Assembly (NCBI GenBank): GCA_026016225.1
Contig: CP061210.1
Coordinates: 130,000 to 193,999, forward strand
Length of the DNA stretch: 64,000 bases
Reading direction: 5' to 3'
Source: Candidatus Nealsonbacteria bacterium
GTDB taxonomy: Bacteria; Patescibacteriota; Minisyncoccia; Minisyncoccales; JANBVM01
The notes below the pieces were generated by a model. That model saw only the letters and a list, made by a program, of their open reading frames with translations. It ran no database searches and was not told the DNA's origin. Made by a program: the position numbers and the translations under genes. Below are positions 1 through 33,948 of the stretch, one piece after another (position 1 is the first letter of the stretch; the number at the start of each line of letters is the position of its first letter).

Positions 1-1419
1 GGTACAATCTTAGATGTAATTGATGCCGCAGCCTCAGCTATTAAAAAAGAGGCGGAAAAGGAATCAGATATTGTAAGCACTTTCAAGAAAGCAATAGAAA
101 AAGCCGGTCAAGCTCTTCTAGCAACAAGAGAAAAAATGGAAATTTTTAAAAAAGCTAATGTGGTTGATGCCGGCGGTTTAGGTTTTTTAATTATTTTGGA
201 AAGTTTTTTGGGAGCTTTGGAAAAGCCTTCCATAGTTTTAGCTGCAGAGGACAGGGAAGAAATACCTTCAAAAAAAATTAAAAGGTTTATTCAGGTTCTT
301 GCTAACCGATATGAAGTTGTTTCTTTAATTGAGAATTCAAATTTTGACGAAGAGGAAGTTCAAGAAAAATTAAAAAAATTAGGGAACTGTCTGGATATCG
401 TTAAAGTTAAAAATAAAATGAAAATCCACATTCATACTGACTATCCAGATGAAGTAAAGAAAGTTATGGGGAGTTTAGGCCAAATCCAAAAATTAAGGGT
501 TGAAGATATGGCAAAGGAAGTAGTGGGAGAAGAATCTGTCAGAAAGATTTCCATCGGTATTATTACTGATGAAATAGCTGATTTAACCCCAAAAATTATT
601 GAACGTTATCAAATTGAAGTTATACCTTGTAAAGTTGATTGGCCTGAATCCAAACGCCTCAAAGGTAAGAATATTTATCAAAAAATGAGGAATGTGGAAA
701 AACAAAAAATTAAAAATTTACCAAAAACTTCTCAGCCTTCACCAAAAGAGTTTCTGGAAGCGTATAAAAGACAACTGAAAAATTTTGAAAAAGTTTTATG
801 CATTTCCCCTTCTTCAAAACTTTCCGGTGTTTACAACTTAGCTTGTCAGACAAGAGAAATGTTACCAGAAAAACAAAGAAAAAAAGTTTTTGTTTTAGAT
901 TCTTATAATGGTAGTTGCGGCCAAGCACTTTTGATTTTAAAGGCAATTGAGTTAATTCAGAGCCAAACAGAAATAGGGGAAATTATGCTTGAATTAAAAA
1001 AGGAAATTTCAAAAATTCAATTATACGCATTTTTAGCTGATCCAAAGTGGTTAGAGTGGGGAGGAAGAATTAACCGCTCCCAGGCTAACTGGATAAGACG
1101 GCTTCAGAAAATAGGAATAAAGCCTTTGTTAGGATTAAAAAAAGGGAAGATAGAGAAAATTGGTTTTCGGGCTAGAACAAAAGAATCTTCTGAAGCAATT
1201 TTTCGGGAGATAAAATCAAAAAGTAAAAAAATAAGAAAACAAAATAAAAAAATCAGGGTAATAATAACTCACTGCGATAATTCAAAAGAAACTAAAAAAT
1301 TAAAAAAGAAACTAAAAGAGATTAAAGCAGAAGTTTCCTTTATCAATTTAACGAGTTCAGTGGTTGGCGCTCATATAGGACCTGGGTCTTTACTTGCGGC
1401 CTGGATGACAATAGAATAA
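1..1419 (+). CDS. DAK2/FakA-like domain fused to a DegV (FakB-like) fatty-acid-binding domain; 5' end truncated by window edge
   Basis: The reading frame is open from base 1 (GTILDVIDAAAS...), so the start lies upstream. VVDAGGLGFLIILESF and KIHIHTDYPDEV resemble YloV/FakA-type DAK2 proteins. The C-terminal half has DegV hallmarks (ISIGIITDEIADL, TSQPSPKEF, SSKLSGVYN, VLDSYNGSCGQ). Confidence 0.7.
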   Translation, partial: GTILDVIDAAASAIKKEAEKESDIVSTFKKAIEKAGQALLATREKMEIFKKANVVDAGGLGFLIILESFLGALEKPSIVLAAEDREEIPSKKIKRFIQVLANRYEVVSLIENSNFDEEEVQEKLKKLGNCLDIVKVKNKMKIHIHTDYPDEVKKVMGSLGQIQKLRVEDMAKEVVGEESVRKISIGIITDEIADLTPKIIERYQIEVIPCKVDWPESKRLKGKNIYQKMRNVEKQKIKNLPKTSQPSPKEFLEAYKRQLKNFEKVLCISPSSKLSGVYNLACQTREMLPEKQRKKVFVLDSYNGSCGQALLILKAIELIQSQTEIGEIMLELKKEISKIQLYAFLADPKWLEWGGRINRSQANWIRRLQKIGIKPLLGLKKGKIEKIGFRARTKESSEAIFREIKSKSKKIRKQNKKIRVIITHCDNSKETKKLKKKLKEIKAEVSFINLTSSVVGAHIGPGSLLAAWMTIE

Positions 1420-1430
1420 TATCAAATACT

Positions 1431-2555
1431 ATGTATATTAAAGGCGTAGGAATGACAAAATTTGATTATTCTCAAAAGCCGTGGTGGCAAATGGTTTTTG
1501 AGTCTGCAATGGAAGCACTCAAGGATTCCTCAATGAAAATATCTGAAATTGATGCTATTGTTTTATCAACTGTTTCCAGCGCAGCTGGCGGAGAACACCA
1601 GACTCACAAAATATCTTTGCTTTCTGATTTATTTAAAACTCATATCCCCATTATTGAAACCCCATCTGTCTGTGCTGGAGGAGGGGTAGCTATATGGACG
1701 GCGAACCGCCTTAATTTTAATAATATTTTGGTAGTTAGCGGAGAAAAATTAGTAGATAATCGTAGTGAGATAACAGTGGACTGGATATTGTCTGCAGCAG
1801 AAAGAGTAATTGAACAAACAGAAGGATTACTTTTTCCAGTACAAAATGCTTTGGTCTGGCAGCAATATATGAAAACATACAAAGCGACAATGGATGATTT
1901 AGCTCTAATTGCCTTTAAGAATCATCAAAATGCTGCCTTGAACCCAAAGGCTTATTATTATAAACGTCCAGTTTCTCTGGAAAAAATCAAAAGTTCTCCC
2001 CTCGTCACTTCTCCTTTTCGGCTTATGGATTGTTCTTTATCAGTTAATGGGGGAGCTGCTGTAATTCTTTCAAAGGAAAAAACCGACATCGAAATTGTCG
2101 GCTCCGGGTTTGCTACAGATTATCTTTTAACTTTTGGGAGAGAAGAACTTCATCATTTTAAAGCGACGAGGATTGCAGTCAAACAGGCTTTTGAACAAGC
2201 AAAACTAACACCTAAAGATATTAAAATTGCTGAAGTTCATGACGCCTTTACCTCAGTGGAATTATTTTCTTATGAAGATTTGGGTTTTGCCGAAATTGGA
2301 AAGGGAGCAGAATTAATAAGGTCAGGTAAAGTAAATTTGGACGGAGAATTACCAATTAATACTTCGGGCGGCTTAAAAGCTAAAGGTCACCCTATTTCAG
2401 CCACAGGCATAGCTCAGATATATGAAATTGTCAATCAGCTACGAGGAAAATGCGGTCAAAGACAGGTAAACCCTATCCCTAAAATTGGTCTCTGCCACAA
2501 TATTGGCGGAACAGGCGGCAGCGTTACGGTTCACATTCTCAGGAAGAATGCTTGA
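1431..2555 (+). CDS. thiolase-fold enzyme (SCP-x/archaeal acetoacetyl-CoA thiolase-like)
   Basis: 374 aa. It has a PSVCAGGG nucleophile-Cys region and the C-terminal NTSGGLKAKGHPISATG and HNIGGTGG motifs typical of thiolases. Confidence 0.8.
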   Translation: MYIKGVGMTKFDYSQKPWWQMVFESAMEALKDSSMKISEIDAIVLSTVSSAAGGEHQTHKISLLSDLFKTHIPIIETPSVCAGGGVAIWTANRLNFNNILVVSGEKLVDNRSEITVDWILSAAERVIEQTEGLLFPVQNALVWQQYMKTYKATMDDLALIAFKNHQNAALNPKAYYYKRPVSLEKIKSSPLVTSPFRLMDCSLSVNGGAAVILSKEKTDIEIVGSGFATDYLLTFGREELHHFKATRIAVKQAFEQAKLTPKDIKIAEVHDAFTSVELFSYEDLGFAEIGKGAELIRSGKVNLDGELPINTSGGLKAKGHPISATGIAQIYEIVNQLRGKCGQRQVNPIPKIGLCHNIGGTGGSVTVHILRKNA

Positions 2556-3030
2556 ACTTTTTTAAAAGTTCTTTAAAAGTCTTTTTCGTCTTTTCAGAAA
2601 CTTCAATTAAGCAAATTCCCTTGTCAAAAAAACCATAGACCACGGCGCTGTGTTTTTCAGAAAGCAAAACAGCCGGTATTACCAAAAGGTCTTCTTCACC
2701 ATCTATAAATACATTTTTATTTTCTTTTATTGCTTTTTTAATTGTCATCCAAACTTTCTCTTGAATTGTACCGGGTGGATTTGAACAATTTAAAGAAAAG
2801 GGTAAAGATTTTTTAATCTTCTTTCTATTTATTTTCCCATCAAAGATTTTAATATCAGAAGAAAGACTTAAAGAACAAGAGTCGCCAATGGTAATTATTT
2901 TCTTAAACTTCCTTTCTTTAATAAGTTTTTTATACTTTTTTGCAATTTCTTTTTTCTTTCCAAAAATCGGTATTCCCCAAACCTTTCTCAGTTTAGGCCG
3001 AAGTTCGTCTGGTAGATAAAGTGTTTTCAT
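2539..3030 (-). CDS. DUF359 family protein (archaeal-type GTP-dependent dephospho-CoA kinase-like)
   Basis: 163 aa. IITIGDSCS and VFIDGEEDLLVIPAVLL match the conserved VGD / DGEEDL..PA blocks of DUF359. Its 3' end overlaps the convergent thiolase by 17 nt. Confidence 0.55.
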   Translation of the reverse strand: MKTLYLPDELRPKLRKVWGIPIFGKKKEIAKKYKKLIKERKFKKIITIGDSCSLSLSSDIKIFDGKINRKKIKKSLPFSLNCSNPPGTIQEKVWMTIKKAIKENKNVFIDGEEDLLVIPAVLLSEKHSAVVYGFFDKGICLIEVSEKTKKTFKELLKKFKHSS

Positions 3031-3081
3031 ACAATCTTAGTTTATCAAAATTAAATCATTTAATAAATTAATTCCAAAAAG

Positions 3082-4140
3082 ATGTTTTATCAATGTTTAA
3101 AATGTAAAAAAGTCTGGCAATATCCGATTAAAAAATGTCCAGAATGTTTTTCAGAATTAGAAAAAATTGTAAGTGAGAAAATTAAAGTAATTGGTGTTTC
3201 AAAAGTTAATATCCCTACCATCTTACACCCAAAAGTTCCTTATTTTGTCCTGCTCTTGGAAGATGAAAAGGGAAATCGCTGGACTCACAAATCAATAAAG
3301 GAATATAAAATCGGCGATAACTTTGTTTTAGAATCTATTCGAAAAAAAACAGCCGTAGCTGTCTGGCGGGTAAAATATGATATCTTAACAGCTGTTGAAA
3401 AAGCTATTGATTTGATAGGAGAGATAAAAATTAAGCAAAACTCCAAGATTTTAGTTTTACCTGCTCTTTTGTCTCCAAAACATCCCTATTTTTCTGAAAA
3501 TACCAGCCCCCAATTTTTAGAAGCTATAATTGAATATTTAATCCAAAAAGGTGTTAAAGATAAAAACATTAAAATAGCTTCTCAAAGTTTTAATGATTTT
3601 CCGATTGAAGCTTCAGCCCAAAAATCTCAGCTGCTACGTGTCTGTAGGGAAAACAAGGTTACTCTTTTGGATTTATCTAAAACAAACTTTGTAAAAAAAG
3701 AAAAAGATGGATTTTTGTTTGAAATCTCAGAAGAAGTGTTTAATAACGATTTAATAATTAATCTACCAATATTAAAAATTGACCCTAAGATAAAAGTTAA
3801 AGGAGCTGCAGAAAATGTTTTAAAATTTCTTAAAAAAGAGTCGTATCTTTCTTTAAAGTATCTTCACCCATATCAAGATTTGTTAAGAAAAATAGAAGAG
3901 ATTTTACCAAATTATCTAACTGTTGCAGAAGGAATCTCAATCCAAAAATCAACAAAGTATACCGCTCTCTTGGGTTTAGTTTTTGTCAGTTTTAATCCCT
4001 TTAATTTAGATAGGGTTTTTGCTGAAATTGCAATGATAAAAGATTTGCCAGAGTACCTCAAAAGTATTAAAATCGAAGATGTCCCGATTACGGGAAGACA
4101 GATTGAAGAATTGCAATATGATGTTGAAAAATTCTACTAA
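3082..4140 (+). CDS. DUF35 (zinc ribbon + OB fold) domain fused to a DUF362-like domain
   Basis: The N-terminus has YQCLKCKKVWQYPIKKCPEC (a 4-Cys ribbon) followed by an OB-like segment, as in thiolase-associated DUF35 proteins. The remainder (KILVLPALLSP...TSPQFLEAIIEYLIQKG) resembles DUF362. Confidence 0.55.
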   Translation: MFYQCLKCKKVWQYPIKKCPECFSELEKIVSEKIKVIGVSKVNIPTILHPKVPYFVLLLEDEKGNRWTHKSIKEYKIGDNFVLESIRKKTAVAVWRVKYDILTAVEKAIDLIGEIKIKQNSKILVLPALLSPKHPYFSENTSPQFLEAIIEYLIQKGVKDKNIKIASQSFNDFPIEASAQKSQLLRVCRENKVTLLDLSKTNFVKKEKDGFLFEISEEVFNNDLIINLPILKIDPKIKVKGAAENVLKFLKKESYLSLKYLHPYQDLLRKIEEILPNYLTVAEGISIQKSTKYTALLGLVFVSFNPFNLDRVFAEIAMIKDLPEYLKSIKIEDVPITGRQIEELQYDVEKFY

Positions 4141-4726
4141 AGGGAAAAACATAACTTTGATTACAGCTGTTTTGCCGCGAATTGAAAATAATTCTTTAGT
4201 AATAGTAAAAAATGTTATTTTAGTTTTAAGTTTTTCAATTTTAACCGCAATCTCCTCCAAGTTAAAAATCGAAATTGGCCCGATTCCTATAACTATGCAG
4301 ACATTGGTGGTTCTTTTAAGCGGAGCTTTATTAGGAAAAAAGAGAGGAACAGCGTCTCAGATTACTTATCTTTTTTTGGGTTTAATTGGTCTCCCCTGGT
4401 TTTCCAGAGGAGGAGGAATAGCTTATATCTTAAGCCCAACTTTTGGTTATATTTTAGGCTTTATATTAGCTGCTTATTTAGTCGGAGCTCTGTTCGAAAA
4501 GGGATGGGGTAAAAATATAATTTCGGCTTTTTTTGTAATGCTGATTGGAAATTATCTAATTTATATTCCCGGCCTTTTGTGGTTAGGAAACTTTATAGAA
4601 CCTTCAAGAATATTAATAATTGGTCTTTACCCTTTCATTTTCGGAGACCTTTTAAAAATATTTTTGGGAGGAATTATCTTATCTTTCAGCTGGAAAACTA
4701 TTAGCAAAAACAATAAAGTCGTATAA
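4118..4726 (+). CDS. bioY: biotin transporter BioY
   Basis: PIPITMQTLVVLLSGALLG and GYILGFILAAY are typical BioY blocks. The start was moved to the ATG at 4118, because the track start at 4079 overlaps the upstream gene. Confidence 0.8.
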   Translation: MMLKNSTKGKNITLITAVLPRIENNSLVIVKNVILVLSFSILTAISSKLKIEIGPIPITMQTLVVLLSGALLGKKRGTASQITYLFLGLIGLPWFSRGGGIAYILSPTFGYILGFILAAYLVGALFEKGWGKNIISAFFVMLIGNYLIYIPGLLWLGNFIEPSRILIIGLYPFIFGDLLKIFLGGIILSFSWKTISKNNKVV

Positions 4727-4762
4727 GCTGAATATAGTTAAAATTATTAATTTTAATTTATT

Positions 4763-5503
4763 ATGTTAGAAGAAAAAGTAGTTCTTATTACGGGTTCTGC
4801 CCAAGGAATCGGCAGGGCAATTGCTTTAAAGTTTGCTTCTTTGAAAACCAGAATTGCTTTAAACGACATTCAAACCCAGGAAGAAAATTTAAAAAAACTA
4901 AAAGAAGAAATCGAAAAAAAGAACACAAAAGCTCAATATTTTTTAGCCGATGTTTCAAGATTAGAAGAGGTTGAAGAAATGATTCAAAAAATAGAAGCAG
5001 AATTTGGAAGATTAGATATTTTGGTTAACAATGCCGGAATTTGTAAAGACAAAACTTTAGCAAAAATGACAAAAGAGGAATGGCAGAAAGTAATTGATAT
5101 AGACTTAACCGGTGTATTTAACTGCACCAAAGCCAGCTTACCATTAATTATCCAAAATCAAGGAAAGATTATTAATGTTTCTTCTGTGGTCGGACAAAGA
5201 GGAAATTTTGGTCAAACAAACTATGCAGCAGCTAAAGCAGGAATAATTGGCTTTACTAAATCTTTATCTAAAGAAATAGGAAGGTTCGGAGTAACCGTAA
5301 ATGCTATTGCTCCAGGTTTTATTGAAACTAAACTTAGTGAAAATTTGTCAGATGAACTAAAGGTGATGATTAAAAAGTTAACTTCTTTGGGTAGATTTGG
5401 TAAACCAGAAGAAGTAGCTGAATTAGTTGCTTTTTTAGCTTCAGAAAATTCAAATTTTATAACCGGAGCTGTTATTAATATTGATGGTGGATTATCAATA
5501 TGA
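4763..5503 (+). CDS. fabG: 3-oxoacyl reductase (SDR, FabG-like)
   Basis: TGSAQGIGRA cofactor motif, NNAG, and YAAAKAG catalytic YxxxK; 246 aa. Confidence 0.85.
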   Translation: MLEEKVVLITGSAQGIGRAIALKFASLKTRIALNDIQTQEENLKKLKEEIEKKNTKAQYFLADVSRLEEVEEMIQKIEAEFGRLDILVNNAGICKDKTLAKMTKEEWQKVIDIDLTGVFNCTKASLPLIIQNQGKIINVSSVVGQRGNFGQTNYAAAKAGIIGFTKSLSKEIGRFGVTVNAIAPGFIETKLSENLSDELKVMIKKLTSLGRFGKPEEVAELVAFLASENSNFITGAVINIDGGLSI

Positions 5504-6993
5504 TGCTAAATAAAGACCAAATTAAAGAAATTATCCCTTATACAGAGCCTTTTTTATGGGTAGATGAAATAGAGAGCATCGAGGGTAACCTCATAATTGG
5601 TTATAAATATACCTCTCTGAAAGACTCTTATTTTAAGGGGCATTTTGTTGACTTTCCTATAATGCCTGGCGTATTGGTTATAGAAGGAATTGCCCAAACA
5701 GCAACTATTCTCTTAAGAAAAAAAATTGGTAAAATTCATAAACAAAAACATCTTTTAGCCCATCAGGTTAGAAGTGCTTTTTTTTATAAACCAATTTTTC
5801 CCGGGGATAAAATAAGGTATGAAGTTGAGCTTTTGGGATTTTATGGATATAAGATTGCTAATTTTAAAGGAGAAGCTTTTGTCGGAGATGAAAAAAAATG
5901 TGAAGTAAGATTTACAATTGCTGTTATAGAAAAAAAAGGATTTAAAGAAAAATACCAACAAAAAAAACAAGAAAAATCCCTACCTCAAACCAAATTGCCT
6001 CCTTTAAGAATTGGAGGACTTTTTGCAAAAATTCCAATTATTCAAGGTGGTATGGCAGTAAGAGTCTCATTGCATAATTTAGCCGGTAATGTGGCCAAAC
6101 AGGGAGCCGTAGGCATTATTGCTGTTTCTGGAATGAATAATCCTAATGAAGTTAAATCAGAAATAAAAAAAGCCAGGAAAATTGCAGGACCTAAAGGAAT
6201 TATTGGAATTAATATTATGGGAGTAGTAAGTCACTTTATTGAATTGGTAAAAGCTGCTATGGAAGAAAAAATTAATTTAGTCATCCAGGGAGCAGGATTT
6301 AGAAAAGATATCTTTGACTTGGGAGGAAAATATAATATTCCCATATTTTCAATGGCTTCTTCTGTCAGGGTTGCCAAAAAAGGAGAAGCTATGGGGGCAG
6401 AGGCAATAGTTGTTGAAGGAATGGAGGCCGGCGGTCATCTTGGTTTTCCAGAAAGTCACCCTTTTAGAAAAACAATTGATATTGTAAGAGAAGTTGTAAA
6501 AGCAGTAAAAACTCCGGTGATTGCAGCTGGAGGCATATTCAATGGAAAAGACATTGTAGAAATGTTAAGAGCGGGGGCTAAGGGAGTCCAGATGGCAACA
6601 AGGTTTGTTTCTACAAAAGAATGTGATGTTCATCAAAATTTTAAAGAGGCGCACCTGAAAGCAAAAAAAGAAGACGTTGTAATTATTCACTCTCCCGTGG
6701 GGCTTCCCGGCAGAGCAATCAAAAATACTTTGGTTGAAAAAATCTTAAAAGGGAAAGCTCCAAAACCAGACTTGAGAAAATGTCGGGGTTGTATAGGAAT
6801 GATTTGCGATAAAAGCTACTGCATCTTGGAAGTTTTAGAAAAAGCCCGTAAGGGTGACGTAGAAAATGGATTAATCTTTGCAGGTTCTAATGTCTGGAGA
6901 GTTAATAAAATAGTTTCTGTGAAAGAACTAATCCAGGAGTTAGTAAGGGAGGCTAACGAGATTTTAAAACATAAACCCTTAATGGAGTATTAA
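5500..6993 (+). CDS. FabZ-like hotdog dehydratase fused to FabK/nitronate-monooxygenase-like enoyl reductase domain
   Basis: The N-terminal roughly 140 aa carry GHFVDFPIMPGVLVIEGIAQ (FabZ/FabA signature). The C-terminal part has IIQGGMA, VVEGMEAGGHLG and AAGGI motifs of the FMN TIM-barrel FabK/NMO family. Confidence 0.7.
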   Translation: MMLNKDQIKEIIPYTEPFLWVDEIESIEGNLIIGYKYTSLKDSYFKGHFVDFPIMPGVLVIEGIAQTATILLRKKIGKIHKQKHLLAHQVRSAFFYKPIFPGDKIRYEVELLGFYGYKIANFKGEAFVGDEKKCEVRFTIAVIEKKGFKEKYQQKKQEKSLPQTKLPPLRIGGLFAKIPIIQGGMAVRVSLHNLAGNVAKQGAVGIIAVSGMNNPNEVKSEIKKARKIAGPKGIIGINIMGVVSHFIELVKAAMEEKINLVIQGAGFRKDIFDLGGKYNIPIFSMASSVRVAKKGEAMGAEAIVVEGMEAGGHLGFPESHPFRKTIDIVREVVKAVKTPVIAAGGIFNGKDIVEMLRAGAKGVQMATRFVSTKECDVHQNFKEAHLKAKKEDVVIIHSPVGLPGRAIKNTLVEKILKGKAPKPDLRKCRGCIGMICDKSYCILEVLEKARKGDVENGLIFAGSNVWRVNKIVSVKELIQELVREANEILKHKPLMEY

Positions 6994-7013
6994 AAATTAT
7001 TTTTAGAATTTTT

Positions 7014-7952
7014 ATGATAGGAACCAAACTCACCAAACTCTTAAATATTAAATATCCCATAATCCAGGGGGGGATGGCTGGAATTTCAGATTCAATTTTA
7101 GTTTCTGCTGTTTCTAATGCCGGAGGATTAGGGGTAATTGGTTCTGGTTTTCTTCCTCCAAAATGGTTAGAGGAAGAAATTAAAAAAACCAAAGAATTAA
7201 CTGATAAACCTTTTGGAGTTAATCTTTTAATGAGAAACCCGAAAGTAGCAGAATTAGCAAAAATTGTAATTCGAGAAAAAATTCCTGTTATTTTTACCGG
7301 AGGAGGAAATCCCCTTCCTTTATTTCCTCATTTAAAAAAGGTTGGTATTAAAGTTATTCCTGTAGTCGCCTTATCAAGATTAGCTAAAAAAATGGAAGAT
7401 AGCTATGCTGATGCTGTAGTAGTGGAAGGTTTTGAATCCGGAGGCCATATTGGCAGAGTGACAACAATAGCTTTGGTCCCTCAGACAAAAAAATTAATAG
7501 AAAAAATTCCTTTAATTGCTGCAGGCGGCATCTATGATGCAAAAACTGCTTTAGCTTGCTTTATCCTGGGAGCTGACGGCATTCAGATGGGCACAAGATT
7601 CTTAGTAAGCAAGGAATGTCAGATTCATGAGAATTATAAAAAAGCTGTTCTGGAAGCAACAGATGAAAATATCATCGTAGCAGCAAGGTTCACTGGTTAT
7701 CCGGTAAGAGCGATAGAAAATGAATTAACAAAAAGGGTTCAGAAGCTGGAAGAAAAAAATCCTTTCCCGGAAGAGATAAGGGCAGATAGATTCTCCAGCT
7801 CAAAAATAGAAAGCGGAAATATAGAGCAAGCTCCTCTTCTTTGCGGGCTTTGTGCTGGAGGAATTTCAAAGATAAAAAGCTGTAAAGAAATAATAGAGGA
7901 AATTATGGAAGGTTCAAAGAAAATAATAAAAGAAGTAGATAAAGATTTATAA
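7014..7952 (+). CDS. fabK: enoyl reductase II (FabK / NMO family)
   Basis: IIQGGMAGIS, VVEGFESGGHIG and AAGGIYD motifs; 312 aa. Confidence 0.75.
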   Translation: MIGTKLTKLLNIKYPIIQGGMAGISDSILVSAVSNAGGLGVIGSGFLPPKWLEEEIKKTKELTDKPFGVNLLMRNPKVAELAKIVIREKIPVIFTGGGNPLPLFPHLKKVGIKVIPVVALSRLAKKMEDSYADAVVVEGFESGGHIGRVTTIALVPQTKKLIEKIPLIAAGGIYDAKTALACFILGADGIQMGTRFLVSKECQIHENYKKAVLEATDENIIVAARFTGYPVRAIENELTKRVQKLEEKNPFPEEIRADRFSSSKIESGNIEQAPLLCGLCAGGISKIKSCKEIIEEIMEGSKKIIKEVDKDL

Positions 7953-7962
7953 GCTAAAGAGT

Positions 7963-8625
7963 ATGAACAGAGCAGTCTCTTGGTTTTGTAAAATATTTCT
8001 TGCTCCCATTGTCAAAAAACTATTAATAAAAGAAGTGGAAGGATGGAAAAACATTCCTAAAGGAAATTTTATCTTAGCTACAAATCATCAAAGTCATTTA
8101 GATGAGTTAGCTACCGGCTATGTCTGTGTTCCAAGACGGTATCACTTCATTGGTCAAACAGATAGTTACACAGGTCCTACCAAATTTTTACTCTATATTT
8201 TATATTTTATTGCCGGGGTAATTCCTTTAAACAGGAAATGTGAAGAATCAAAAAAAAGAGCAGTAAAAAAAGCAATCGAAGTTTTGAAAAAGGGAGATAT
8301 TTTAATAATTTATCCTGAGGGCACAAGAACAAGAACGGGGAAAATAGGAAGGGGTAAGTGGGGAACAGCCAGGATTTTTTTAAAAACAGGTGTCCCGATA
8401 TTGCCGGCAGGTATTAAGGGAACCTTTGAACTTATGCCTCCTGGAAAAAAATTTAAAATAAAAAAAATAATTAAAATTAACATTGGAAAACCTCTTTATT
8501 TTAAAGAAGAATTTGAAAAAGCAAAAAACTTAAATAAAAACTCAAAAGAGTATAGGTTCTTGCTTCAGAAAATAACTAATAAGATAATGGGAGAAATATC
8601 TAATTTGCAAAAAAGCATAAAATAA
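7963..8625 (+). CDS. plsC: 1-acyl-sn-glycerol-3-phosphate acyltransferase
   Basis: NHQSHLDE (HX4D) and YPEGTRT acyltransferase motifs. Confidence 0.8.
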   Translation: MNRAVSWFCKIFLAPIVKKLLIKEVEGWKNIPKGNFILATNHQSHLDELATGYVCVPRRYHFIGQTDSYTGPTKFLLYILYFIAGVIPLNRKCEESKKRAVKKAIEVLKKGDILIIYPEGTRTRTGKIGRGKWGTARIFLKTGVPILPAGIKGTFELMPPGKKFKIKKIIKINIGKPLYFKEEFEKAKNLNKNSKEYRFLLQKITNKIMGEISNLQKSIK

Positions 8626-8626
8626 T

Positions 8627-10168
8627 ATGACAATTAAAAAAATTCTCATTGCAAACAGGGGGGAGATTGCTCTGCGAATAATTAGAACATGTCAAGAAAT
8701 GGAAATTAAAACCGTTGCCCTTTGTCCTTTGCCAGGACAAGAACAAAATTTCCTTGAGACAAGACTGGCCGACGAATACTATTTCTTAAATAAAGAGGGA
8801 GCTGAAGGTTATCTGGATAAAAAAAAGATTGTTGAAATTGCCAAAAAAGCCAAAGTTGATGCTATTCATCCTGGTTATGGATTCTTATCTGAGAATTGGA
8901 GATTTGCCAGGCTTTGTCAGAAAAACAAAATTTGGTTTATTGGTCCCCATTTCAAGATGTTAAAAAAATTAGAAGATAAAATTGAAGCTAAAAGAATTGC
9001 TCAAAAAGCCGGTATCCCCACGCTTCCTGCAAGTAAGGGTCCCATTAAAACAAAAAAAGACTTGGTAAAATGGGTTGGGCAAATTAAGCCTCCTTTTGTC
9101 TTAAAAGCACAAAAAGGAGGAGGAGGAATCGGTATTCGGGTGATAAATGGAAAAATTGATTTTGGTAATCTTTTTACAATTTCCAGCGGAATTCAGAGGC
9201 AAATAGCTACGGCTTTTTCTGAAACAGATTTTTTCCTTGAAAAACATCTCCCAAATGCAAGGCATATTGAAGTTCAGATATTAGGAGATAAAAAAAAGGT
9301 ACTCCATCTCGGAGAAAGAGAATGTACTATTCAAAGAAGATTTCAAAAACTGTTCGAAGAAGCGCCCTCTCCTTTTCTTGATGATAAAGAAAGAGAAAAA
9401 ATAAGAAATTTAGCGGTAAAATTTGGCAAAAGATTAAGATATCGAGGAGTGGGCACGATTGAGTTTTTAGTGGATGAAAATAAAAATTTTTATTTTTTAG
9501 AAACCAATCCTCGACTCCAGGTAGAACACCCTATTACGGAAGCAATAACAGGTATCGATATGGTGGAACAGCAAATTAGAATTGCTCAAGGACAAGAGAT
9601 TCCTTTTTCTCAAGACGATGTTTTCTTTAATGGCTGGGCAGTAGAAGCACGAATTAATGCCGAAGACCCAAAAAAGAACTTTCAACCTGCACCTGGCGTT
9701 ATCCAGAAATATCTCCCTCCCGGAGGACAGGGAATTTTCTTGCATACCTTTTTACACGAGGGACAAGAAATTTATCCTTACTTTGATTCACTTTTAGCAA
9801 AGATTATTGCCCATGGAAAAACGAGGAAAGAAGCTATTTCTCGTTTAAAGAGGGTTTTAGATGAGATTGCTATTGAGGGAGTTCCAACCACTATTCCTTT
9901 TTTCAAGCTCCTTTTAAAAGATGAAAATTTCCTGAAAGGAAACTTTACCACTAACTTTATTGAAAAAAGCAAGATTTTACAAAAGTTATCCCCTCAAATT
10001 TGTCCCAAAAGACCCTTAAAAACCAGGGAGATAGAAGAAAAAGAATTAGCCAATATCATTTTTCAAATTTACAAAACTTTGAAAAGTTCAGAAAGTATTT
10101 CTCCTGAAAAAAAAGTTTCTGCATCAAACTGGGTAATGGCTGAAAGATCAAAAATGCTTAACGAATAA
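8627..10168 (+). CDS. accC: biotin carboxylase subunit of acyl-CoA carboxylase
   Basis: KILIANRGEIALRI, the ATP-grasp glycine-rich loop KAQKGGGGIGIRV, and EFLVDENKNFYFLETNPRLQVEHP. Confidence 0.9.
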   Translation: MTIKKILIANRGEIALRIIRTCQEMEIKTVALCPLPGQEQNFLETRLADEYYFLNKEGAEGYLDKKKIVEIAKKAKVDAIHPGYGFLSENWRFARLCQKNKIWFIGPHFKMLKKLEDKIEAKRIAQKAGIPTLPASKGPIKTKKDLVKWVGQIKPPFVLKAQKGGGGIGIRVINGKIDFGNLFTISSGIQRQIATAFSETDFFLEKHLPNARHIEVQILGDKKKVLHLGERECTIQRRFQKLFEEAPSPFLDDKEREKIRNLAVKFGKRLRYRGVGTIEFLVDENKNFYFLETNPRLQVEHPITEAITGIDMVEQQIRIAQGQEIPFSQDDVFFNGWAVEARINAEDPKKNFQPAPGVIQKYLPPGGQGIFLHTFLHEGQEIYPYFDSLLAKIIAHGKTRKEAISRLKRVLDEIAIEGVPTTIPFFKLLLKDENFLKGNFTTNFIEKSKILQKLSPQICPKRPLKTREIEEKELANIIFQIYKTLKSSESISPEKKVSASNWVMAERSKMLNE

Positions 10169-10174
10169 ATTTTT

Positions 10175-10561
10175 ATGAACTTAAAAATAAACATTCAAGG
10201 TAAAGAATACGATGTAGAAATTAAAAGATTAAACAAAGATAAAGTGAAGATAAAGGTAGGAAAAGAAGAGTTTATTTTTGAAGAGAAAGAAAAAGAGAAA
10301 GAGAAAATTGTAGTTGCAAAAACCGCTTTGCCTAAAAGAAAATTTAAAACAAAAGAAATTAAAGCCCCTATTGCGGGGACAGTTTCAGAAGTTTTTGTTA
10401 AAGAAAACGAATTCATTAAAAAAGGGAGGAAAGTTGTTTTGTTATCTGCAATGAAAATGGAAAATGAAATAATTTCTGAATTTGAAGGAAGGGTAAAAAA
10501 AATTTTGGCAAAAAAAGAGCAGAAGGTTAAAGAAGGGAAGGTCTTAATTATTTTAGAATAA
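10175..10561 (+). CDS. accB: biotin carboxyl carrier protein
   Basis: C-terminal biotinyl domain with the SAMKMENEI (AMKM) biotinylation motif. Confidence 0.8.
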   Translation: MNLKINIQGKEYDVEIKRLNKDKVKIKVGKEEFIFEEKEKEKEKIVVAKTALPKRKFKTKEIKAPIAGTVSEVFVKENEFIKKGRKVVLLSAMKMENEIISEFEGRVKKILAKKEQKVKEGKVLIILE

Positions 10562-10574
10562 CGTTAAAGAAATT

Positions 10575-11093
10575 ATGAAATTTAAAAAATATAAGAGAAT
10601 TTCTTCGACTAACGCTCTGGCAAAAAAGGTAAAGCATGAACCATGGCTGGTCATCTGGGCAGAAGAACAAACTGCGGGATACGGAAGAAAAAAAGATTAC
10701 TGGTTTTCTCCAAAAGGCGGACTTTATTTTTCGGTTGTTTTGCCAAAAAGCACCATTGATGATTTGCAAACTCTAACTATTTTAGCAGCTTTTGTAGTAG
10801 CTAAAGTGATGAAAGAAAATTTTAATGTAGAACCCATGATTAAATTACCAAATGATGTTTATCTAAACCAAAAAAAGATAGCTGGCATTTTAACAGAAAC
10901 TGTTGTGGGAACTAATGTTAAATTTTCAATAATGGGATTCGGTTTAAATACAAATATTGATAAATTTCCAAAAGATTTGGAAAATATTGCTACATCCCTT
11001 AAAATAGAATTAGGTAAAAAAGTAGACAATGAAAAAATTCTAAAACAAATAATAGAAGAGATAAAAAATCAATTAAGGACAATAAGCGAATAG
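10575..11093 (+). CDS. birA: biotin--protein ligase (short, no DNA-binding domain)
   Basis: GYGRKKDYWFSPKGGLYFSVVL matches the GRGRxWxSxxGxL BirA motif, and KLPNDVYLNQKKIAGIL is also typical. Confidence 0.7.
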   Translation: MKFKKYKRISSTNALAKKVKHEPWLVIWAEEQTAGYGRKKDYWFSPKGGLYFSVVLPKSTIDDLQTLTILAAFVVAKVMKENFNVEPMIKLPNDVYLNQKKIAGILTETVVGTNVKFSIMGFGLNTNIDKFPKDLENIATSLKIELGKKVDNEKILKQIIEEIKNQLRTISE

Positions 11094-11105
11094 TTTAAAT
11101 CCTAT

Positions 11106-12656
11106 ATGGCTTTTGAAAAAGAAATTAAAAAATTAAACGAAAAAATGCAAAGTCTGGAAAATCCAGATTTAATTGAAAAACAACACCAGAAAGGAAAACT
11201 AACTGCCAGAGAAAGGATTAACCTACTTTTAGACGTGGGTAGTTTTGTTGAATTAGATGCACTTGTTGAAACCAGATTTAGTAATCTTGGTCTGGATAAA
11301 AAGAAGTTCCCGGGCGATGCAGTAATTACTGGTTTTGGAAAAGTAAGTAAGAGGCAGGTTTATGTTTACAGCCAAGATTTTTCAAAAATAGGAGGTTCCT
11401 CAGGTGAAATGCACAGCAAAAAAATCATCAAGATTATTAATCTTGCCAGAAAAACAGGTTGTCCCTCAATAGGAATAATTGACTCTGGAGGAGCTAGAAT
11501 CCAGGAAGGGATATCAAGTCTTGAAGGATATGCGGGTATTTTTAGTGAAATGATTAAGTCCTCGGGAGTAATTCCTCAAATATCTATAATTGTTGGGCCA
11601 TCGGCCGGAGGCGCATCATACGCTCCTGGTTTATCAGACTTTGTATTCATGGTTGAGAGAATATCTCAAATGTATATCACGGGACCTAAAGTAATTAAAA
11701 AAGTTACAGGAGAAACGGTTTCTTTTGAAGATTTAGGAGGAGCTGTTGTCCACAGCTCAAAAAGCGGTTGTGCTCATTTTTCTTTTGATTCTGAAAAAGA
11801 GTGCTTTTTGGCAGTAAAAAGACTTCTTTCTTATTTACCGCAAAATAATATGGAAGACCCTCCAAGAGAAAGAAGTTTTCTTGCTGAACTCTTCGAAAAA
11901 GAACAAAGCTATAGGTTATTAGAGATATTGCCAGAAAAAGAAGAAAAGAGTTATGATATGAAAGAAATAATTGAGGAGATTTTTGATAAAAATTCTTTTT
12001 TTGAAGTTCAATCAAACTTTGCCGTAAATTCAATAGTGGGCTTTGTTAAATTAGGAGGTTTAGTGGTCGGCATTGTTGCCAACCAAACAAAATTTATGGC
12101 AGGCACCCTTGATATCGATTCTTCGGACAAAATCGCCCGTTTTGTTAGATTCTGTGATGCATTTAACATTCCCTTGATTAACTTGGTAGATACTCCCGGC
12201 TATCTTCCGGGAAAGGAACAAGAAAAAAAAGGAATAATCCGGCATGGAGCTAAAATATTGTATGCCTTCTCAGAAGCTACTGTTCCCAAAATCAGTTTAA
12301 TTATAAGAAAGGCCTTTGGAGGAGCTTATATTGCTTTAGCCTCTCGCCAGCTGGGGTATGATAAGATAATTGCCTGGCCATCAGCACAGATTGCGGTAAT
12401 GGGTCCTGAACAGGCAGTAAAAATTATCTATAAAAAAGAGCTGACAAAGAGTAAAGACCCAAAGAAATTAGAGAAAGATAAAGTTCAAGAATTAAAAGAA
12501 CTGTTCTTAAATCCCTATCAGGCAGCTAAACTCGGTTATATTGATATGATAATTAATCCAAAAGACACCAGGGTCATCCTAATAAAGTGTATGGAATCGC
12601 TTTTGAATAAAAGAGAAAGTAAAGTTGCCAAAAAACACGGAAATATACCTTTATAA
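11106..12656 (+). CDS. acyl-CoA carboxylase carboxyltransferase subunit (PccB/AccD5-like)
   Basis: 516 aa fused alpha/beta carboxyltransferase. It has QHQKGKLTARERI, GGARIQEG and FGGAY motifs. Confidence 0.85.
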   Translation: MAFEKEIKKLNEKMQSLENPDLIEKQHQKGKLTARERINLLLDVGSFVELDALVETRFSNLGLDKKKFPGDAVITGFGKVSKRQVYVYSQDFSKIGGSSGEMHSKKIIKIINLARKTGCPSIGIIDSGGARIQEGISSLEGYAGIFSEMIKSSGVIPQISIIVGPSAGGASYAPGLSDFVFMVERISQMYITGPKVIKKVTGETVSFEDLGGAVVHSSKSGCAHFSFDSEKECFLAVKRLLSYLPQNNMEDPPRERSFLAELFEKEQSYRLLEILPEKEEKSYDMKEIIEEIFDKNSFFEVQSNFAVNSIVGFVKLGGLVVGIVANQTKFMAGTLDIDSSDKIARFVRFCDAFNIPLINLVDTPGYLPGKEQEKKGIIRHGAKILYAFSEATVPKISLIIRKAFGGAYIALASRQLGYDKIIAWPSAQIAVMGPEQAVKIIYKKELTKSKDPKKLEKDKVQELKELFLNPYQAAKLGYIDMIINPKDTRVILIKCMESLLNKRESKVAKKHGNIPL

Positions 12657-12679
12657 GAACGTTTGGTTAATTGGTTAAT

Positions 12680-13273
12680 ATGAGTAAATTTTTTTCACTA
12701 TCAATCTTTGCCTACTTTTTAGGCTCAATTGTTTTCGGACACATTGTTGCTAAAATAAAAAAAGTTGACCTTTCCAAAATTGGCAGCAAATCTTATACCT
12801 CTACAAACGTTTCTCGGGCTTTTGGGTGGAGGTGGGGAATTTTAACAGCATTATTAGATTTTTCAAAGGGAACAATTCCCACCCTTTTAGCTCTTAATTA
12901 TTTACAAAATGAATGGCAGATTGTCGTTGTAGCAATATTACCTACGCTGGGACACATCTTCCCCGTTCTCTTTAAATTTAAGGGGGGAAAAGGAGGAGCT
13001 ACTTTCCTTGGAACCTGTCTGGCTTTGGTGGGTTTAAAAACTTTTATTCCTGCATTTTTAGTCTGGCTTCTTATCTTTGCTCTAACCAGAATTACAGCCT
13101 TCACAAACTTAATTTTTCCCTGGCTTTTTTCATTATTTTTATATTATTGGAATTTTCCTTTTTATTATTTTATGATTGGGGTTTTAGACTCTACACTAAT
13201 AACTTTTGCTTTAAGAAGTAATATAAAAAGATTCTTTAAAGGCAAAGAGCCTAAAACTCCCTTAAAACTTTAA
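12680..13273 (+). CDS. plsY: acyl-phosphate:glycerol-3-phosphate acyltransferase PlsY (paralog 1)
   Basis: Polytopic membrane protein with the GHIFPVLFKFKGGKGGATFLG PlsY block. The ATG at 12680 is preferred over the TTG at 12671. Confidence 0.7.
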   Translation: MSKFFSLSIFAYFLGSIVFGHIVAKIKKVDLSKIGSKSYTSTNVSRAFGWRWGILTALLDFSKGTIPTLLALNYLQNEWQIVVVAILPTLGHIFPVLFKFKGGKGGATFLGTCLALVGLKTFIPAFLVWLLIFALTRITAFTNLIFPWLFSLFLYYWNFPFYYFMIGVLDSTLITFALRSNIKRFFKGKEPKTPLKL

Positions 13274-13283
13274 TAATACATCT

Positions 13284-13952
13284 ATGGAAAATATTAATCT
13301 TTTTTGGATAATTTTTTCTTACATCTTAGGTTCGATTCCTTTTGGATACATAATTACCAAATTTTCAACAAAAAAGAATATTTTAGAAATTGGCTGGAGA
13401 AAAACTTCCGGTTCGAATGTTTTTAAGAATATCGGCAAATGGCAAGGGGCATTAACTGGAGTTTTAGATTTAGGTAAAGGGTTCTTGGCTGTTAAATTGG
13501 CGCAATTTTTGGGATTGTCAACATTAACCCAGGTTTTGTCAGGAGTAGCTGCTGTAACCGGCCATAATTGGTCGTGCTTTTTAAATTTTGCAGGCGGCAG
13601 AGGAATCGGAACTTTTGTCGGGGCCGGCTTAGCTTTAATTCCAAGAACTTTAGGACTTTCTTTAATCTTTCCTATTATATTAGCTCTAATATGGAACGCT
13701 TCAATTGGTACAATTTTACTTTTAATAACAATTATATTTCTATCTTCTCACTTTAATCAGTTTGAAACAGGAGGATTATTCGGTTTAATATCTTTAATAC
13801 CAATTTTTATTAAAAGGTTAAGTCCGATAAAAGAAATTAAAGCAGCTAAAGATAAAGGTGTTTTGATAAAGAATCGTTTAATTTTTGACGATGATAAAGC
13901 TTATTCGGAATTCAGAATAAAAAGAATAATCAGGAAGTTGACAAAAAAATGA
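13284..13952 (+). CDS. PlsY-like acyltransferase (paralog 2, divergent)
   Basis: GHNWSCFLNFAGGRGIGTFVG aligns with the PlsY core block of the upstream paralog, and the topology is similar. Confidence 0.6.
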   Translation: MENINLFWIIFSYILGSIPFGYIITKFSTKKNILEIGWRKTSGSNVFKNIGKWQGALTGVLDLGKGFLAVKLAQFLGLSTLTQVLSGVAAVTGHNWSCFLNFAGGRGIGTFVGAGLALIPRTLGLSLIFPIILALIWNASIGTILLLITIIFLSSHFNQFETGGLFGLISLIPIFIKRLSPIKEIKAAKDKGVLIKNRLIFDDDKAYSEFRIKRIIRKLTKK

Positions 13953-30023: not shown

Positions 30024-31070
30024 TTAGTAGGCGAAAGGATTTCTGGCTCCGCTGACTCCAAAATGTACATGGCAACCTGTAGACATTCCTGCTCCCGGTG
30101 TTCCGGACTGTCCGCCCATTAAAGCTATTATTTGCCCCTGATAAACTTGATCGCCAGGATTAACAAAACTGCTCAAAATATGTCCGTACATTGTTACTAC
30201 TCCATTTGGGTGTAAAATTGTTAAATGATTCCCGGCGCCTCCAAAAGCCCAGCGGGAAGTAGAATTGGTTAATTTAACTTTCAGCACCGTGCCGCCGGCA
30301 GCAGCATATATTGACTCTCCGCATTTGCCGTGACTAAAATCAATCGCATTATACCAGTGAAGACCTTGAGTAATTCGACAGGGTAAAGATATTGGACAGA
30401 TAAAATAACTTTTACCTAACGGAACCCAGGTGGAAGCAGTTTGTACGGTAGGAGAAGGCATTACTCCGTTTGGAACAACTAAAATATCTCCAATAAAAAT
30501 ATCAGCCTCGCCTGAAAGCTGATTGAAAGAAACTATTTCTTCTGTTTTAGCTTTATAGTTTTTTGCAATAGCGCTAACAGTATCTCCTGATTTAACGTGG
30601 TGGATTATACCGGACACGGGCGGAATAATTAGTTTTTGTCCGGGTTGAATTGTTGTTTTTTGCAAATCATTAGCCCAGAGAATGCTATTTACAGAAACAT
30701 CAAATTTAGCAGCGATTGACCACAAACTATCTCCTTGTTCAACAATATACTCAACAATTGTTTTTTGAACGTCTTTAAAATCAAAACCTTCAAACAAAGC
30801 CCCCAAAACTTTTGGGGTAATGGTAAAAGGTGGACAGATTGCCCGAAAGCTATTCCTTTGCTCTAAAATAAATTCTGGTAGTTCTGGTTGTGATTTTTGA
30901 GACAAGCTCGCAAAAACATTCTGGGAATTGACAACACTTGCTGAAAATAAATCTAAAACCAAAACCTTCTCAGTGTTTCTTAAAGAACAGACGTAAACAA
31001 AGGTGATTAAAATAAGCGCTCCAAAAAGCGGTTTTAAAATTTCTTTCACTTTGTTATAAGAATCAGACAT
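30024..31070 (-). CDS. LysM-domain M23 family peptidoglycan metallopeptidase
   Basis: N-terminal TM helix, two LysM repeats (GDSLWSIAAKF..., GDTVSAIAKNY...), and M23 motifs HWYNAIDF and GCHVHFG. Confidence 0.85.
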   Translation of the reverse strand: MSDSYNKVKEILKPLFGALILITFVYVCSLRNTEKVLVLDLFSASVVNSQNVFASLSQKSQPELPEFILEQRNSFRAICPPFTITPKVLGALFEGFDFKDVQKTIVEYIVEQGDSLWSIAAKFDVSVNSILWANDLQKTTIQPGQKLIIPPVSGIIHHVKSGDTVSAIAKNYKAKTEEIVSFNQLSGEADIFIGDILVVPNGVMPSPTVQTASTWVPLGKSYFICPISLPCRITQGLHWYNAIDFSHGKCGESIYAAAGGTVLKVKLTNSTSRWAFGGAGNHLTILHPNGVVTMYGHILSSFVNPGDQVYQGQIIALMGGQSGTPGAGMSTGCHVHFGVSGARNPFAY

Positions 31071-32685: not shown

Positions 32686-33948
32686 ATGAAGAAATTTATT
32701 AGGAATAAAAAAATTCTCCTTTTATTTGTACTTTTGGGATTTTTTTTCATTGTTTCAAAAACATTTGCTTTAGAAATAGACTGGCCAAAGTCTCCCGTAA
32801 GCGATACTCAATTAAATGATGACAGCGTGCTCGGAGATATGGTTAAGTATTTTTATGAGTGGGGAATTACTATGGGTGGATTAGTAACGTTTTTTTCTTT
32901 ATTAATTGGTGGATTCAAATATTTAACTTCAATAGGAAGTCCAACAGTAATGAAGGAAGCAACTGACCAAATAACCTCAGCTTTTTTAGGTCTCATTTTA
33001 CTTTTATCGTCCTGGTTGATTCTAAACACAATCAGCCCTCAATTTACAACTTTTCAAGCAAATCCTTTTAAGAAAAATCCCTATGGGGGAGAGTGGGGTG
33101 ATTTTTCATTCAAACAACAACCTTCTTGTGATTACGCCATTTTATATGACAATAGTGGAAACGAAATAGAAATTGAGGGAACCACGGAAACTGAATTAAC
33201 TGAAGACTTAGGGATAGTCCATTTAAAATCATCTCCTGTCTCTATTAGAGCCTTCCGCAAAGAAGAAGAGAAAGATAAAGAGTGTGGCCCAGAGGCATGT
33301 TTATGCTATGTAAAATTATATGCAGATGTCGATGAGGGAAGCTGTAATTTTATGGTAGCAGAGCATTTTGCATATCATAATGATCTTCCTAGCTTAATAG
33401 ATCCAGAATACAAACCTATAAAGTGTATACAATTAAAAGCGGGAGGAGCTTGTCGTCCCTGTTATAAGCCCGATGAAAGCGGTAAATGTATTTGGGTTGG
33501 AGACACTAATTGGGGAGAAGGCTTAGCTGAATGTTATGGAGATAACAAACGCTGTTTTGATAAAAAATGTAGAACTTGCGAGGGCTGGTGGGACAATGAC
33601 GGACTGGGTGGAAAGGGCTGCTGGTATAAAGAGAAAGGAGGAGAAGCTGGTCATAGTTGTAATAATGAAATTTGTAAAGACCATGGTGGATGTGTAGATG
33701 CAAATTGGAATGATGATGAGAATTGCACTATCTGCAGGCACTTTTTTGGTTCTGATGCTGGCTGTATTGACGATGCTCATCACCACGCCCCTTTTTGGGG
33801 AAACTCATGGCTCAAATATCCAACTCCCTACTGCTATTATAGGACGGGCGAGCAAGGCAGTTATGACCAGGATTGCGATTCAGGCATTCCAAAGCACTCT
33901 GCATCTTGGGAGAATTGGGAGTGGCGTATATGCGTGTGTGAGTATTAA
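32686..33948 (+). CDS. VirB2/TrbC-like T4SS pilin domain fused to a large cysteine-rich C-terminal domain
   Basis: A signal/TM segment is followed by two hydrophobic helices (GITMGGLVTFFSLLIGGFKYL, AFLGLILLLSSWLILNTI), arranged as in T4SS pilins. The C-terminal roughly 290 aa contain about two dozen Cys plus many Trp, Gly and Asp. Confidence 0.5.
   Translation: MKKFIRNKKILLLFVLLGFFFIVSKTFALEIDWPKSPVSDTQLNDDSVLGDMVKYFYEWGITMGGLVTFFSLLIGGFKYLTSIGSPTVMKEATDQITSAFLGLILLLSSWLILNTISPQFTTFQANPFKKNPYGGEWGDFSFKQQPSCDYAILYDNSGNEIEIEGTTETELTEDLGIVHLKSSPVSIRAFRKEEEKDKECGPEACLCYVKLYADVDEGSCNFMVAEHFAYHNDLPSLIDPEYKPIKCIQLKAGGACRPCYKPDESGKCIWVGDTNWGEGLAECYGDNKRCFDKKCRTCEGWWDNDGLGGKGCWYKEKGGEAGHSCNNEICKDHGGCVDANWNDDENCTICRHFFGSDAGCIDDAHHHAPFWGNSWLKYPTPYCYYRTGEQGSYDQDCDSGIPKHSASWENWEWRICVCEY

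Follow-up and report, generated by a model that had tools for sequence, protein, structure and literature searches.

An apparent variant of fatty acid kinase with a complete DegV domain at the FakA C-terminal position in Candidatus Nealsonbacteria and other Patescibacteria

Fatty acid kinase normally consists of two separate proteins, the ATP-binding FakA and the fatty-acid-binding FakB of the DegV family, and a gene at the edge of a DNA stretch from a Candidatus Nealsonbacteria bacterium (contig CP061210.1, positions 130,000 to 193,999; all 64,000 nucleotides are hereafter called the window) raises the question of whether one chain can hold both functions. The initial annotation described it as a FakA-like kinase module fused to a DegV/FakB domain, a single-chain kinase that would turn scavenged host fatty acids into acyl-phosphate for two PlsY paralogues 11 kb downstream. 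Our comparisons indicate that the gene is real and conserved, and that it represents a previously uncharacterised variant of fatty acid kinase architecture; coordinates are collected in Table 1.

Frame 1 of the plus strand is open from the first nucleotide to a TAA stop at 1417-1419, with the 5′ end of the gene beyond the window edge. Its translation contains every motif quoted in the initial annotation (VVDAGGLGFLIILESF, KIHIHTDYPDEV, TSQPSPKEF, SSKLSGVYN and VLDSYNGSCGQ) and the Pfam domains Dak2, FakA-like_M and DegV in this order, which bears out the claim that a DAK2-like segment runs in one continuous frame into a full DegV domain. In the window protein, Dak2 is matched at amino acids 1-70 (profile positions 97-173 of 174; 43.8 bits, cut-off 27), FakA-like_M (PF21645) at 103-173 (57.2 bits, cut-off 24.9) and DegV (PF02645) at 184-464 (profile positions 1-273 of 280; 171.2 bits, cut-off 27; E = 3.9e-50), and the score with the NCBIfam DegV model TIGR00762 is 193.9 bits (cut-off 99.7). 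The missing N-terminus was taken from two loci, the complete Ca. Nealsonbacteria genome CP179891.1 (694,748 bp; L001) and a Logan contig (L002), whose adjoining thiolase-like protein is identical to that of the window, this being the route by which both contigs were found. In both, the gene product (L001:8190-9989 in the former) has 599 amino acids, is 97% identical to the window part and contains, as had been proposed for the upstream sequence, a complete Dak2 ATP-binding domain with all its Mg-ATP motifs (PF02734 profile positions 1-173 of 174). Because the gene has 599 codons in L001 and L002, the window lacks codons 1-127; residues are numbered below as in these relatives, the window frame beginning after codon 127.

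Invariant columns were counted in an alignment of 65 homologues of the window clade (A2). The Mg-ATP motifs of Dak2 (PVPDQDTGxN, AQGNAG, GT and VVDAGG) are invariant, including D37, D39, T40, G41, N43, G80-N81-G83, G128-T129 and D183-A-G-G, as are H270 and H272 of the middle domain, which correspond to His282/284 of Staphylococcus aureus FakA and His289/291 of Streptococcus suis FakA.

We then asked whether the fusion could be an assembly or sequencing artefact that masks a stop or a frameshift at the boundary of two genes, one fakA-like and one degV. Hidden Markov models (HMMs) made from the three protein parts were run on all 82 fetched loci, with the window copy as the 83rd. The Dak2, middle and DegV parts share one open reading frame (ORF) in 82 of 82 loci, as they do in the window, with only a few clipped at contig ends, and this HMM search found no Dak2-only ORF in the 82 loci. 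The junction is thus unbroken in independent loci from different assemblies and studies, among them the complete genomes CP179891.1, CP179887.1, CP179889.1 and AP038758.1 and the chromosome-level metagenome-assembled genome OZ246399.1. By Pfam, the three domains follow one another in the same order in 120 of the 120 closest homologues, and our HMMs place all three in 141 of 165 sequences tested (the best 150 representatives of 50% clusters and 15 cluster members). Because 82/82 loci carry the junction within one ORF, a hidden stop or misassembly is excluded; no point in its support was found, and we reject the artefact as vanishingly improbable.

The C-terminal domain, of ~290 amino acids, is what sets the protein apart. 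The window protein has no match to FakA_C (PF13684) at E ≤ 0.1, and its fused DegV domain aligns end to end with solved DegV/FakB structures, with TSQPSP, SSKLSG, DS, GGR and HxGPG all present. Judged from motif spacing and structure alignments, T370, S402, R483 and H585 would match T61, S93, R170 and H266 of S. aureus FakB2, of which Thr, Ser and His bind the fatty-acid carboxylate and Arg is catalytic. In the window clade (A2), T370 and S402 are each found in 65/65 homologues, R483 in 63/65 and H585 in 54/65; in an alignment of 74 distant fusions that are 25-35% identical to the window protein (A3), the corresponding counts are T 67/74, S 74/74, R 73/74 and H 67/74. Across 127 near-complete three-domain sequences (50%-cluster representatives and a few cluster members), [T/S]-S-R is kept in 125. 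An AlphaFold model of the 599-amino-acid protein P0001 had a mean predicted local distance difference test score of 82.4 and low confidence in the linkers at 203-229 and 298-308. In Foldseek searches, the whole chain matched S. suis FakA (7w7h; E = 2e-29), the N-domain matched S. aureus FakA_N with a template modelling score (TM) of 0.9 and a root-mean-square deviation (rmsd) of 1.5 Å, and the C-domain matched about 45 DegV/FakB chains at TM about 0.8. Together with the lack of a PF13684 match, the predicted structure agrees with the suggestion that DegV replaces the usual C-terminal domain of FakA. The R173A mutant of FakB1 still exchanges fatty acid but is dead in the kinase reaction (PMC9136124). 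Because this Arg, needed only for phosphotransfer, is conserved, a fatty acid in the fused pocket would itself be phosphorylated, and the pocket in the window clade looks fully competent. The C-terminal Glu of the window protein, considered as an analogue of the FakB-docking Glu548/554, was dropped as a coincidence, the last residue being variable (K in 30, I in 13 and E in 12 of 79).

Canonical FakA comprises a DhaL-like, ATP-binding FakA_N, a middle dimerisation domain with Cys-His-His and a FakB-related FakA_C (PMC9136124), or, in the terms of a review, DhaL, a zinc finger and a C-terminal DegV domain (PMC10146087). FakA_C has ~220 amino acids and binds FakB; as it lacks three insertions, there is no tunnel for a fatty acid (PMC9136124). 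The S. suis complex shows it packed against the N-domain of the partner chain, like DhaK on DhaL (PMC10848957). Because canonical FakA already ends in a degenerate DegV-like domain, the window protein is a FakA with a non-degenerate C-terminal domain and not simply FakA plus FakB. The premise that two normally separate proteins are merged here has to be amended to that extent, and what stands is that the domain is complete. The protein resembles FakA of S. aureus and S. suis (PDB 7W7H, 7RM7, 6W6B) in its Dak2 domain, with 30% identity to S. aureus FakA_N besides the structural match above, in its His-x-His middle domain and DegV/EDD-fold C-terminus, and in having standalone DegV genes nearby, comparable to fakB (FakB1/2/3 are separate). 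It differs from FakA in having a full, Pfam-detectable DegV domain (171 bits) with T/S/R/H instead of the tunnel-less FakA_C, in the window-clade motifs PVPDQDTG and AQGNAG instead of PVPDGDTG and ARGNSG, in a Glu for the zinc-ligand Cys, and in scores far below the NCBIfam cut-offs for FakA and YloV. With the truncated window protein as query, the equivalog models gave 64.6 against 975 (FakA_VfrB, NF038248), 131.3 against 396.1 (YloV, TIGR03599) and 113.8 against 350 (FakB1). The likeness to FakB/DegV proteins (4X9X, 5WOO, 1PZX, 2DT8, 1MGP) extends end to end over ~280 residues; those proteins, however, are free shuttles of ~280-300 amino acids between membrane and FakA, whereas here DegV is the C-terminal part of a 599-amino-acid kinase chain. 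Dihydroxyacetone kinases (Escherichia coli DhaK/DhaL) likewise pair an EDD-fold substrate domain with a DhaL/Dak2 nucleotide domain, but in Dak K precedes L, the reverse of the order here, a middle domain is absent and the substrate is dihydroxyacetone rather than a fatty acid. The single-chain Dak of Citrobacter freundii carries substrate and nucleotide domains in one chain, which work across the dimer.

Related genomes, in which the initial annotation suggested looking for the same fusion, contain it widely. When each GTDB species was surveyed with a single genome, relatives were encoded in 477 of the species genomes; the best 80 of these cover the whole protein and are all Patescibacteria (Paceibacteria/Parcubacteria, Nealsonbacteria and Minisyncoccales), among them Minisyncoccus archaeiphilus PMX.108, which is in culture. 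Searched with a profile, 1.84 billion cluster representatives yielded 20,072 matches at E ≤ 0.001, of which 2,367 reached E ≤ 1e-30. Three-domain fusions outside the candidate phyla radiation (CPR) were found in Ca. Marinimicrobia (MBL7052847.1) and Zixibacteria (MBD3234902.1), both annotated as 'DegV family EDD domain-containing protein', and PF02734, PF21645 and PF02645 occur together in 75 of the 75 distant members scanned. These Marinimicrobia/Zixibacteria-type fusions share the three-domain order and an intact T-S-R-H with the window protein, but are 25-35% identical to it and retain both the Cys of canonical FakA (in 'FRYCTE') and its Dak2 motifs; a weak FakA-like_C match over the DegV domain was also seen in 38 of the 75. 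The architecture is already visible in public annotation, and belongs to a relative of a well-studied enzyme. Dak2-DegV fusions are mentioned in one sentence of a heliorhodopsin preprint, as previously reported and as occurring in Chloroflexi and Firmicutes, citing Erni 2006 (10.1101/2021.02.16.431466); otherwise our literature search found no natural FakA-FakB fusion and no discussion of the Fak system in CPR bacteria.

We favour, at a probability of roughly 60%, the reading that the gene encodes the FakA-type kinase of this organism, that this kinase has a functional fatty-acid site in its fused DegV domain and that it supplies PlsY, probably together with a standalone DegV protein. The chain would dimerise through its middle domain, as FakA does, with DegV of one chain placed on Dak2 of the other, as FakA_C is on FakA′_N and DhaK on DhaL. 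A fatty acid held in the fused pocket would be converted with ATP to acyl-phosphate, which PlsY (two copies in the adjacent array) would use to acylate glycerol-3-phosphate before PlsC acts, and in the closest genome the nearby standalone DegV would probably be an additional, exchangeable fatty-acid carrier.

Several observations weigh against this reading. The first 127 codons lie outside the window, so that the N-terminus is that of 97%-identical relatives, and the domain arrangement in the AlphaFold monomer model has low confidence (predicted TM 0.54). The zinc-ligand Cys of the canonical middle domain is an invariant Glu (E232) in the CPR clade ('RYE' vs 'RYC'), and the metal site may be absent or may be coordinated through a carboxylate; Cys occupies this column in 67/74 distant fusions (A3), and the column was placed via those keeping 'FRYCTE', as the alignment with the S. 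suis FakA PDB entry reached only 260-319 and not Cys244. Both L001 and L002 have a standalone DegV gene (4832-5713 in L001) 2.5 kb before the fusion gene, and one to three such genes occur within the fetched flanks for 52 of 79 scorable fused copies. Fused DegV domains fall, in 78 of 79 cases, into one pure clade apart from the standalone CPR DegVs; identity between the two kinds is 35% on average and 47% in L001, and K325, invariant in the fused domains, is E or D in the standalone copies. Finally, fused domains of the Minisyncoccales type have lost Thr, Arg and His, with some copies shortened, and the fused site is also degenerate or shortened in the scattered loci L042, L045, L051, L071 and L073.

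Such data would also fit a classical two-component kinase, in which the fused DegV is a structural or docking equivalent of FakA_C that pairs with Dak2 and binds FakB, only the fatty acid on a standalone DegV is phosphorylated, and lipid in the fused pocket is structural. The fused domain stands at the exact position of FakA_C, which is itself a FakB-like fold that binds FakB and FakA′_N (PMC9136124, PMC10848957). Beside the 83 fusion ORFs (82 loci and the window) are 98 standalone DegV ORFs, with T, S and R each conserved in 94/94, and because these genes flank the fusion, the classical FakA plus FakB mode is available. Proteins of the Minisyncoccales-type clade share ~47% identity with the window protein; their fused domain has the sequences PKIEPISP, SSRLSKNY and SINACPQS, and its GGR loop is deleted. 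Thirty of these domains are I/V-S-x-N, and each has one to three standalone DegV genes directly downstream, nearly all of them T-S-R-H. Because Thr, Arg and His are lost there, fatty-acid binding by the fused domain is dispensable in close relatives, in which the decayed domain appears to behave like FakA_C, and this decay looks like a repeat of FakA_C degeneration in Firmicutes. At L043-L082 (e.g. L082:10001-13607, M. archaeiphilus), a degenerate fused DegV is followed by two or three intact standalone DegV genes.

A pure docking domain would, however, be expected to drift as it did in this sister clade, whereas the Arg required only for phosphotransfer is kept in the fused domain of the window clade and of distant phyla; moreover, no standalone DegV was found within 8 kb of the PlsY-fused gene at L084 (see below) or of the Zixibacteria fusion gene. 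We therefore regard a fused domain that serves for docking alone as the main rival but as unlikely, and retain a working fused pocket. The single-chain kinase initially proposed survives in part: the T/S/R/H residues are kept, but a standalone DegV accompanies 52 of 79 fused copies and a sister clade has lost the pocket. In its literal form, with a FakA-FakB fusion replacing the two-component system, it is rejected, as standalone DegV genes lie beside the fusion in most relatives.

A bolder version of the working-pocket reading, which we advance tentatively and consider possible but doubtful, is that the enzyme is self-sufficient, phosphorylating its own fatty acid across a domain-swapped dimer, and represents the ancestral state of FakA, canonical FakA_C being a decayed fused DegV. 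Paceibacteria would then show this decay in progress, from an intact pocket (window clade) to loss of Thr, Arg and His with two or three standalone DegVs (Minisyncoccales) and shortened domains (some Nealsonbacteria). The PlsY-fused lineages would channel fatty acid directly to lysophosphatidate, and the dispute over where the fatty acid sits at phosphorylation, in FakB or in the FakA_C/FakA′_N cavity, would be affected.

The surroundings of the gene point to lipid synthesis. The fusion gene and a thiolase-like gene directly downstream are followed by one minus-strand gene and then by an unbroken plus-strand array: DUF362, BioY, FabG, a FabZ-FabK fusion, FabK, a PlsC-like protein, AccC, BCCP, biotin ligase, a carboxyltransferase and PlsY twice. 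Both PlsY paralogues 11 kb downstream are thus confirmed, with PF02660 scores given in Table 1; they stand in tandem, and the shortfall from the TIGR00023 cut-off is slight for the first and large for the second. In the stretch at 1431-12656, the thiolase is of archaeal type and the carboxyltransferase is mmdA-like. β-Ketoacyl synthases (KAS; FabH/FabF), FabD, acyl carrier protein (ACP) and PlsX were found neither in this array nor in ten other window ORFs scanned; for PlsX, these were ten ORFs of 265-431 amino acids between 30 and 62 kb of the window, and the negative applies to the window and not to the rest of the genome. The array looks like a condensing-enzyme-poor, possibly ACP-independent acyl-chain pathway, and the same partial gene set also appears in the published account of M. 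archaeiphilus, where the fatty-acid supply is called unexplained (PMC12281837). Just upstream of the fusion gene, L001:4832-7521, which by synteny lies upstream of the window start, encodes a standalone DegV (T-S-R-L), a CDP-alcohol phosphatidyltransferase, a PHP-domain protein and a CarS-like protein (CDP-archaeol synthase family); a CarS-family enzyme in a bacterium is noteworthy. By their predicted products, the steps from fatty acid to head-grouped phospholipid are encoded within about 20 kb.

A functional link to PlsY, also proposed initially, gains further support from other Patescibacteria, in which PlsY, Dak2, FakA_M and DegV form one polypeptide (P0142, 868 amino acids; P0147, 866; P0154, 838, MEK7482616.1), labelled by NCBI only as 'glycerol-3-phosphate acyltransferase'. 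These proteins share with the window protein the CPR-type kinase module, Glu for Cys, His-x-His and an intact T-S-R; they differ in carrying PlsY at the N-terminus, whereas PlsY of the window is separate, in two copies, 11 kb downstream. The four-domain PlsY fusions also include P0174/P0300 and P0230, and the locus L084:8001-10517 encodes one. By its domain content, the four-domain protein is a membrane acyltransferase joined to the kinase predicted to make its acyl donor, and these fusions are the strongest evidence for the PlsY link, supporting acyl-phosphate as the product and PlsY as its consumer.

They also bear on whether the ligand, instead of a free fatty acid bound for PlsY, is another lipid (such as an isoprenoid acid or a lysolipid), or whether the protein is a regulatory lipid sensor, as some DegV proteins are. 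Some members come from parasites of archaea, M. archaeiphilus (L082) and Ca. Microsyncoccus archaeolyticus (L067), and archaeal hosts are not expected to supply fatty acids; a streptococcal DegV protein reportedly regulates membrane lipid content. The carboxylate-binding tetrad is nevertheless that of FakB, PlsY, which takes an acyl-phosphate donor, is fused to the protein in relatives, and the gene lies in a fatty-acid and phospholipid neighbourhood, so that we judge a different ligand or a sensor role quite improbable. The proposed scavenging of host fatty acids is possible, but it is not the only reading and is not required, because the neighbouring genes (FabG, FabZ-FabK, FabK, thiolase and acyl-CoA carboxylase) could make or elongate acyl chains, and some members parasitise archaea.

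Table 1. Coordinates of the fusion gene, its domains and other genes in the window.
Feature	Position	Strand	Details
fakA-type gene, 3′ part	1..1419	+	472 codons and stop; full gene 599 codons in 97%-identical relatives
Dak2/DhaL ATP-binding domain, C-terminal part	1..210	+	PF02734, amino acids 1-70; includes G-T (T129 = nt 4-6) and VVDAGG (D183 = nt 166-168)
FakA middle domain (dimerisation/metal site)	307..519	+	PF21645; His-x-His nt 427-435 (H270, H272); E232 nt 313-315
Complete DegV (FakB-like) domain at FakA_C position	550..1392	+	PF02645; T370 nt 727-729, S402 nt 823-825, R483 nt 1066-1068, H585 nt 1372-1374
PlsC-like 1-acylglycerol-3-phosphate acyltransferase	7963..8625	+	PF01553; TIGR00530 74 bits, below cut-off; next pathway step, putative partner
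PlsY paralogue 1, acyl-phosphate:glycerol-3-phosphate acyltransferase	12671..13273	+	PF02660 127.8 bits; TIGR00023 132.5 (cut-off 137.2); putative consumer of kinase product
PlsY paralogue 2	13284..13952	+	PF02660 106.4 bits; TIGR00023 99.3 (cut-off 137.2); putative consumer of kinase product
LysM + M23 peptidase	30024-31070	-	Possible cell-surface or host-interaction gene
Type IV secretion system (T4SS)-pilin-like protein	32686-33948		Possible cell-surface or host-interaction gene
ORF of 1288 amino acids	38791-42657		Possible cell-surface or host-interaction gene
Beta-propeller protein	42726-43916	-	Possible cell-surface or host-interaction gene

Elsewhere in the window, dnaN lies at 47481-48605, and the 448-amino-acid ORF directly upstream (45981-47327) could be dnaA, in which case the chromosomal replication origin may lie in the window.

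CPR bacteria/Patescibacteria are thought to be without lipid synthesis, and the source of their membrane fatty acids is an acknowledged gap, made explicit for M. archaeiphilus (PMC12281837). The gene described here probably feeds fatty acids into membrane lipid synthesis, and the fusion, standalone DegV and PlsY/PlsC together offer a testable entry route, from fatty acid to acyl-phosphate, lysophosphatidate and phosphatidate, conserved in hundreds of species. A FakA with a fatty-acid pocket and the catalytic Arg in its C-domain is a natural test case for the Fak mechanism, on which two models compete. The decay of the pocket from clade to clade speaks to the origin of FakA_C and, with the PlsY fusions, provides a natural experiment for the Fak mechanism and for lipid acquisition by CPR bacteria.

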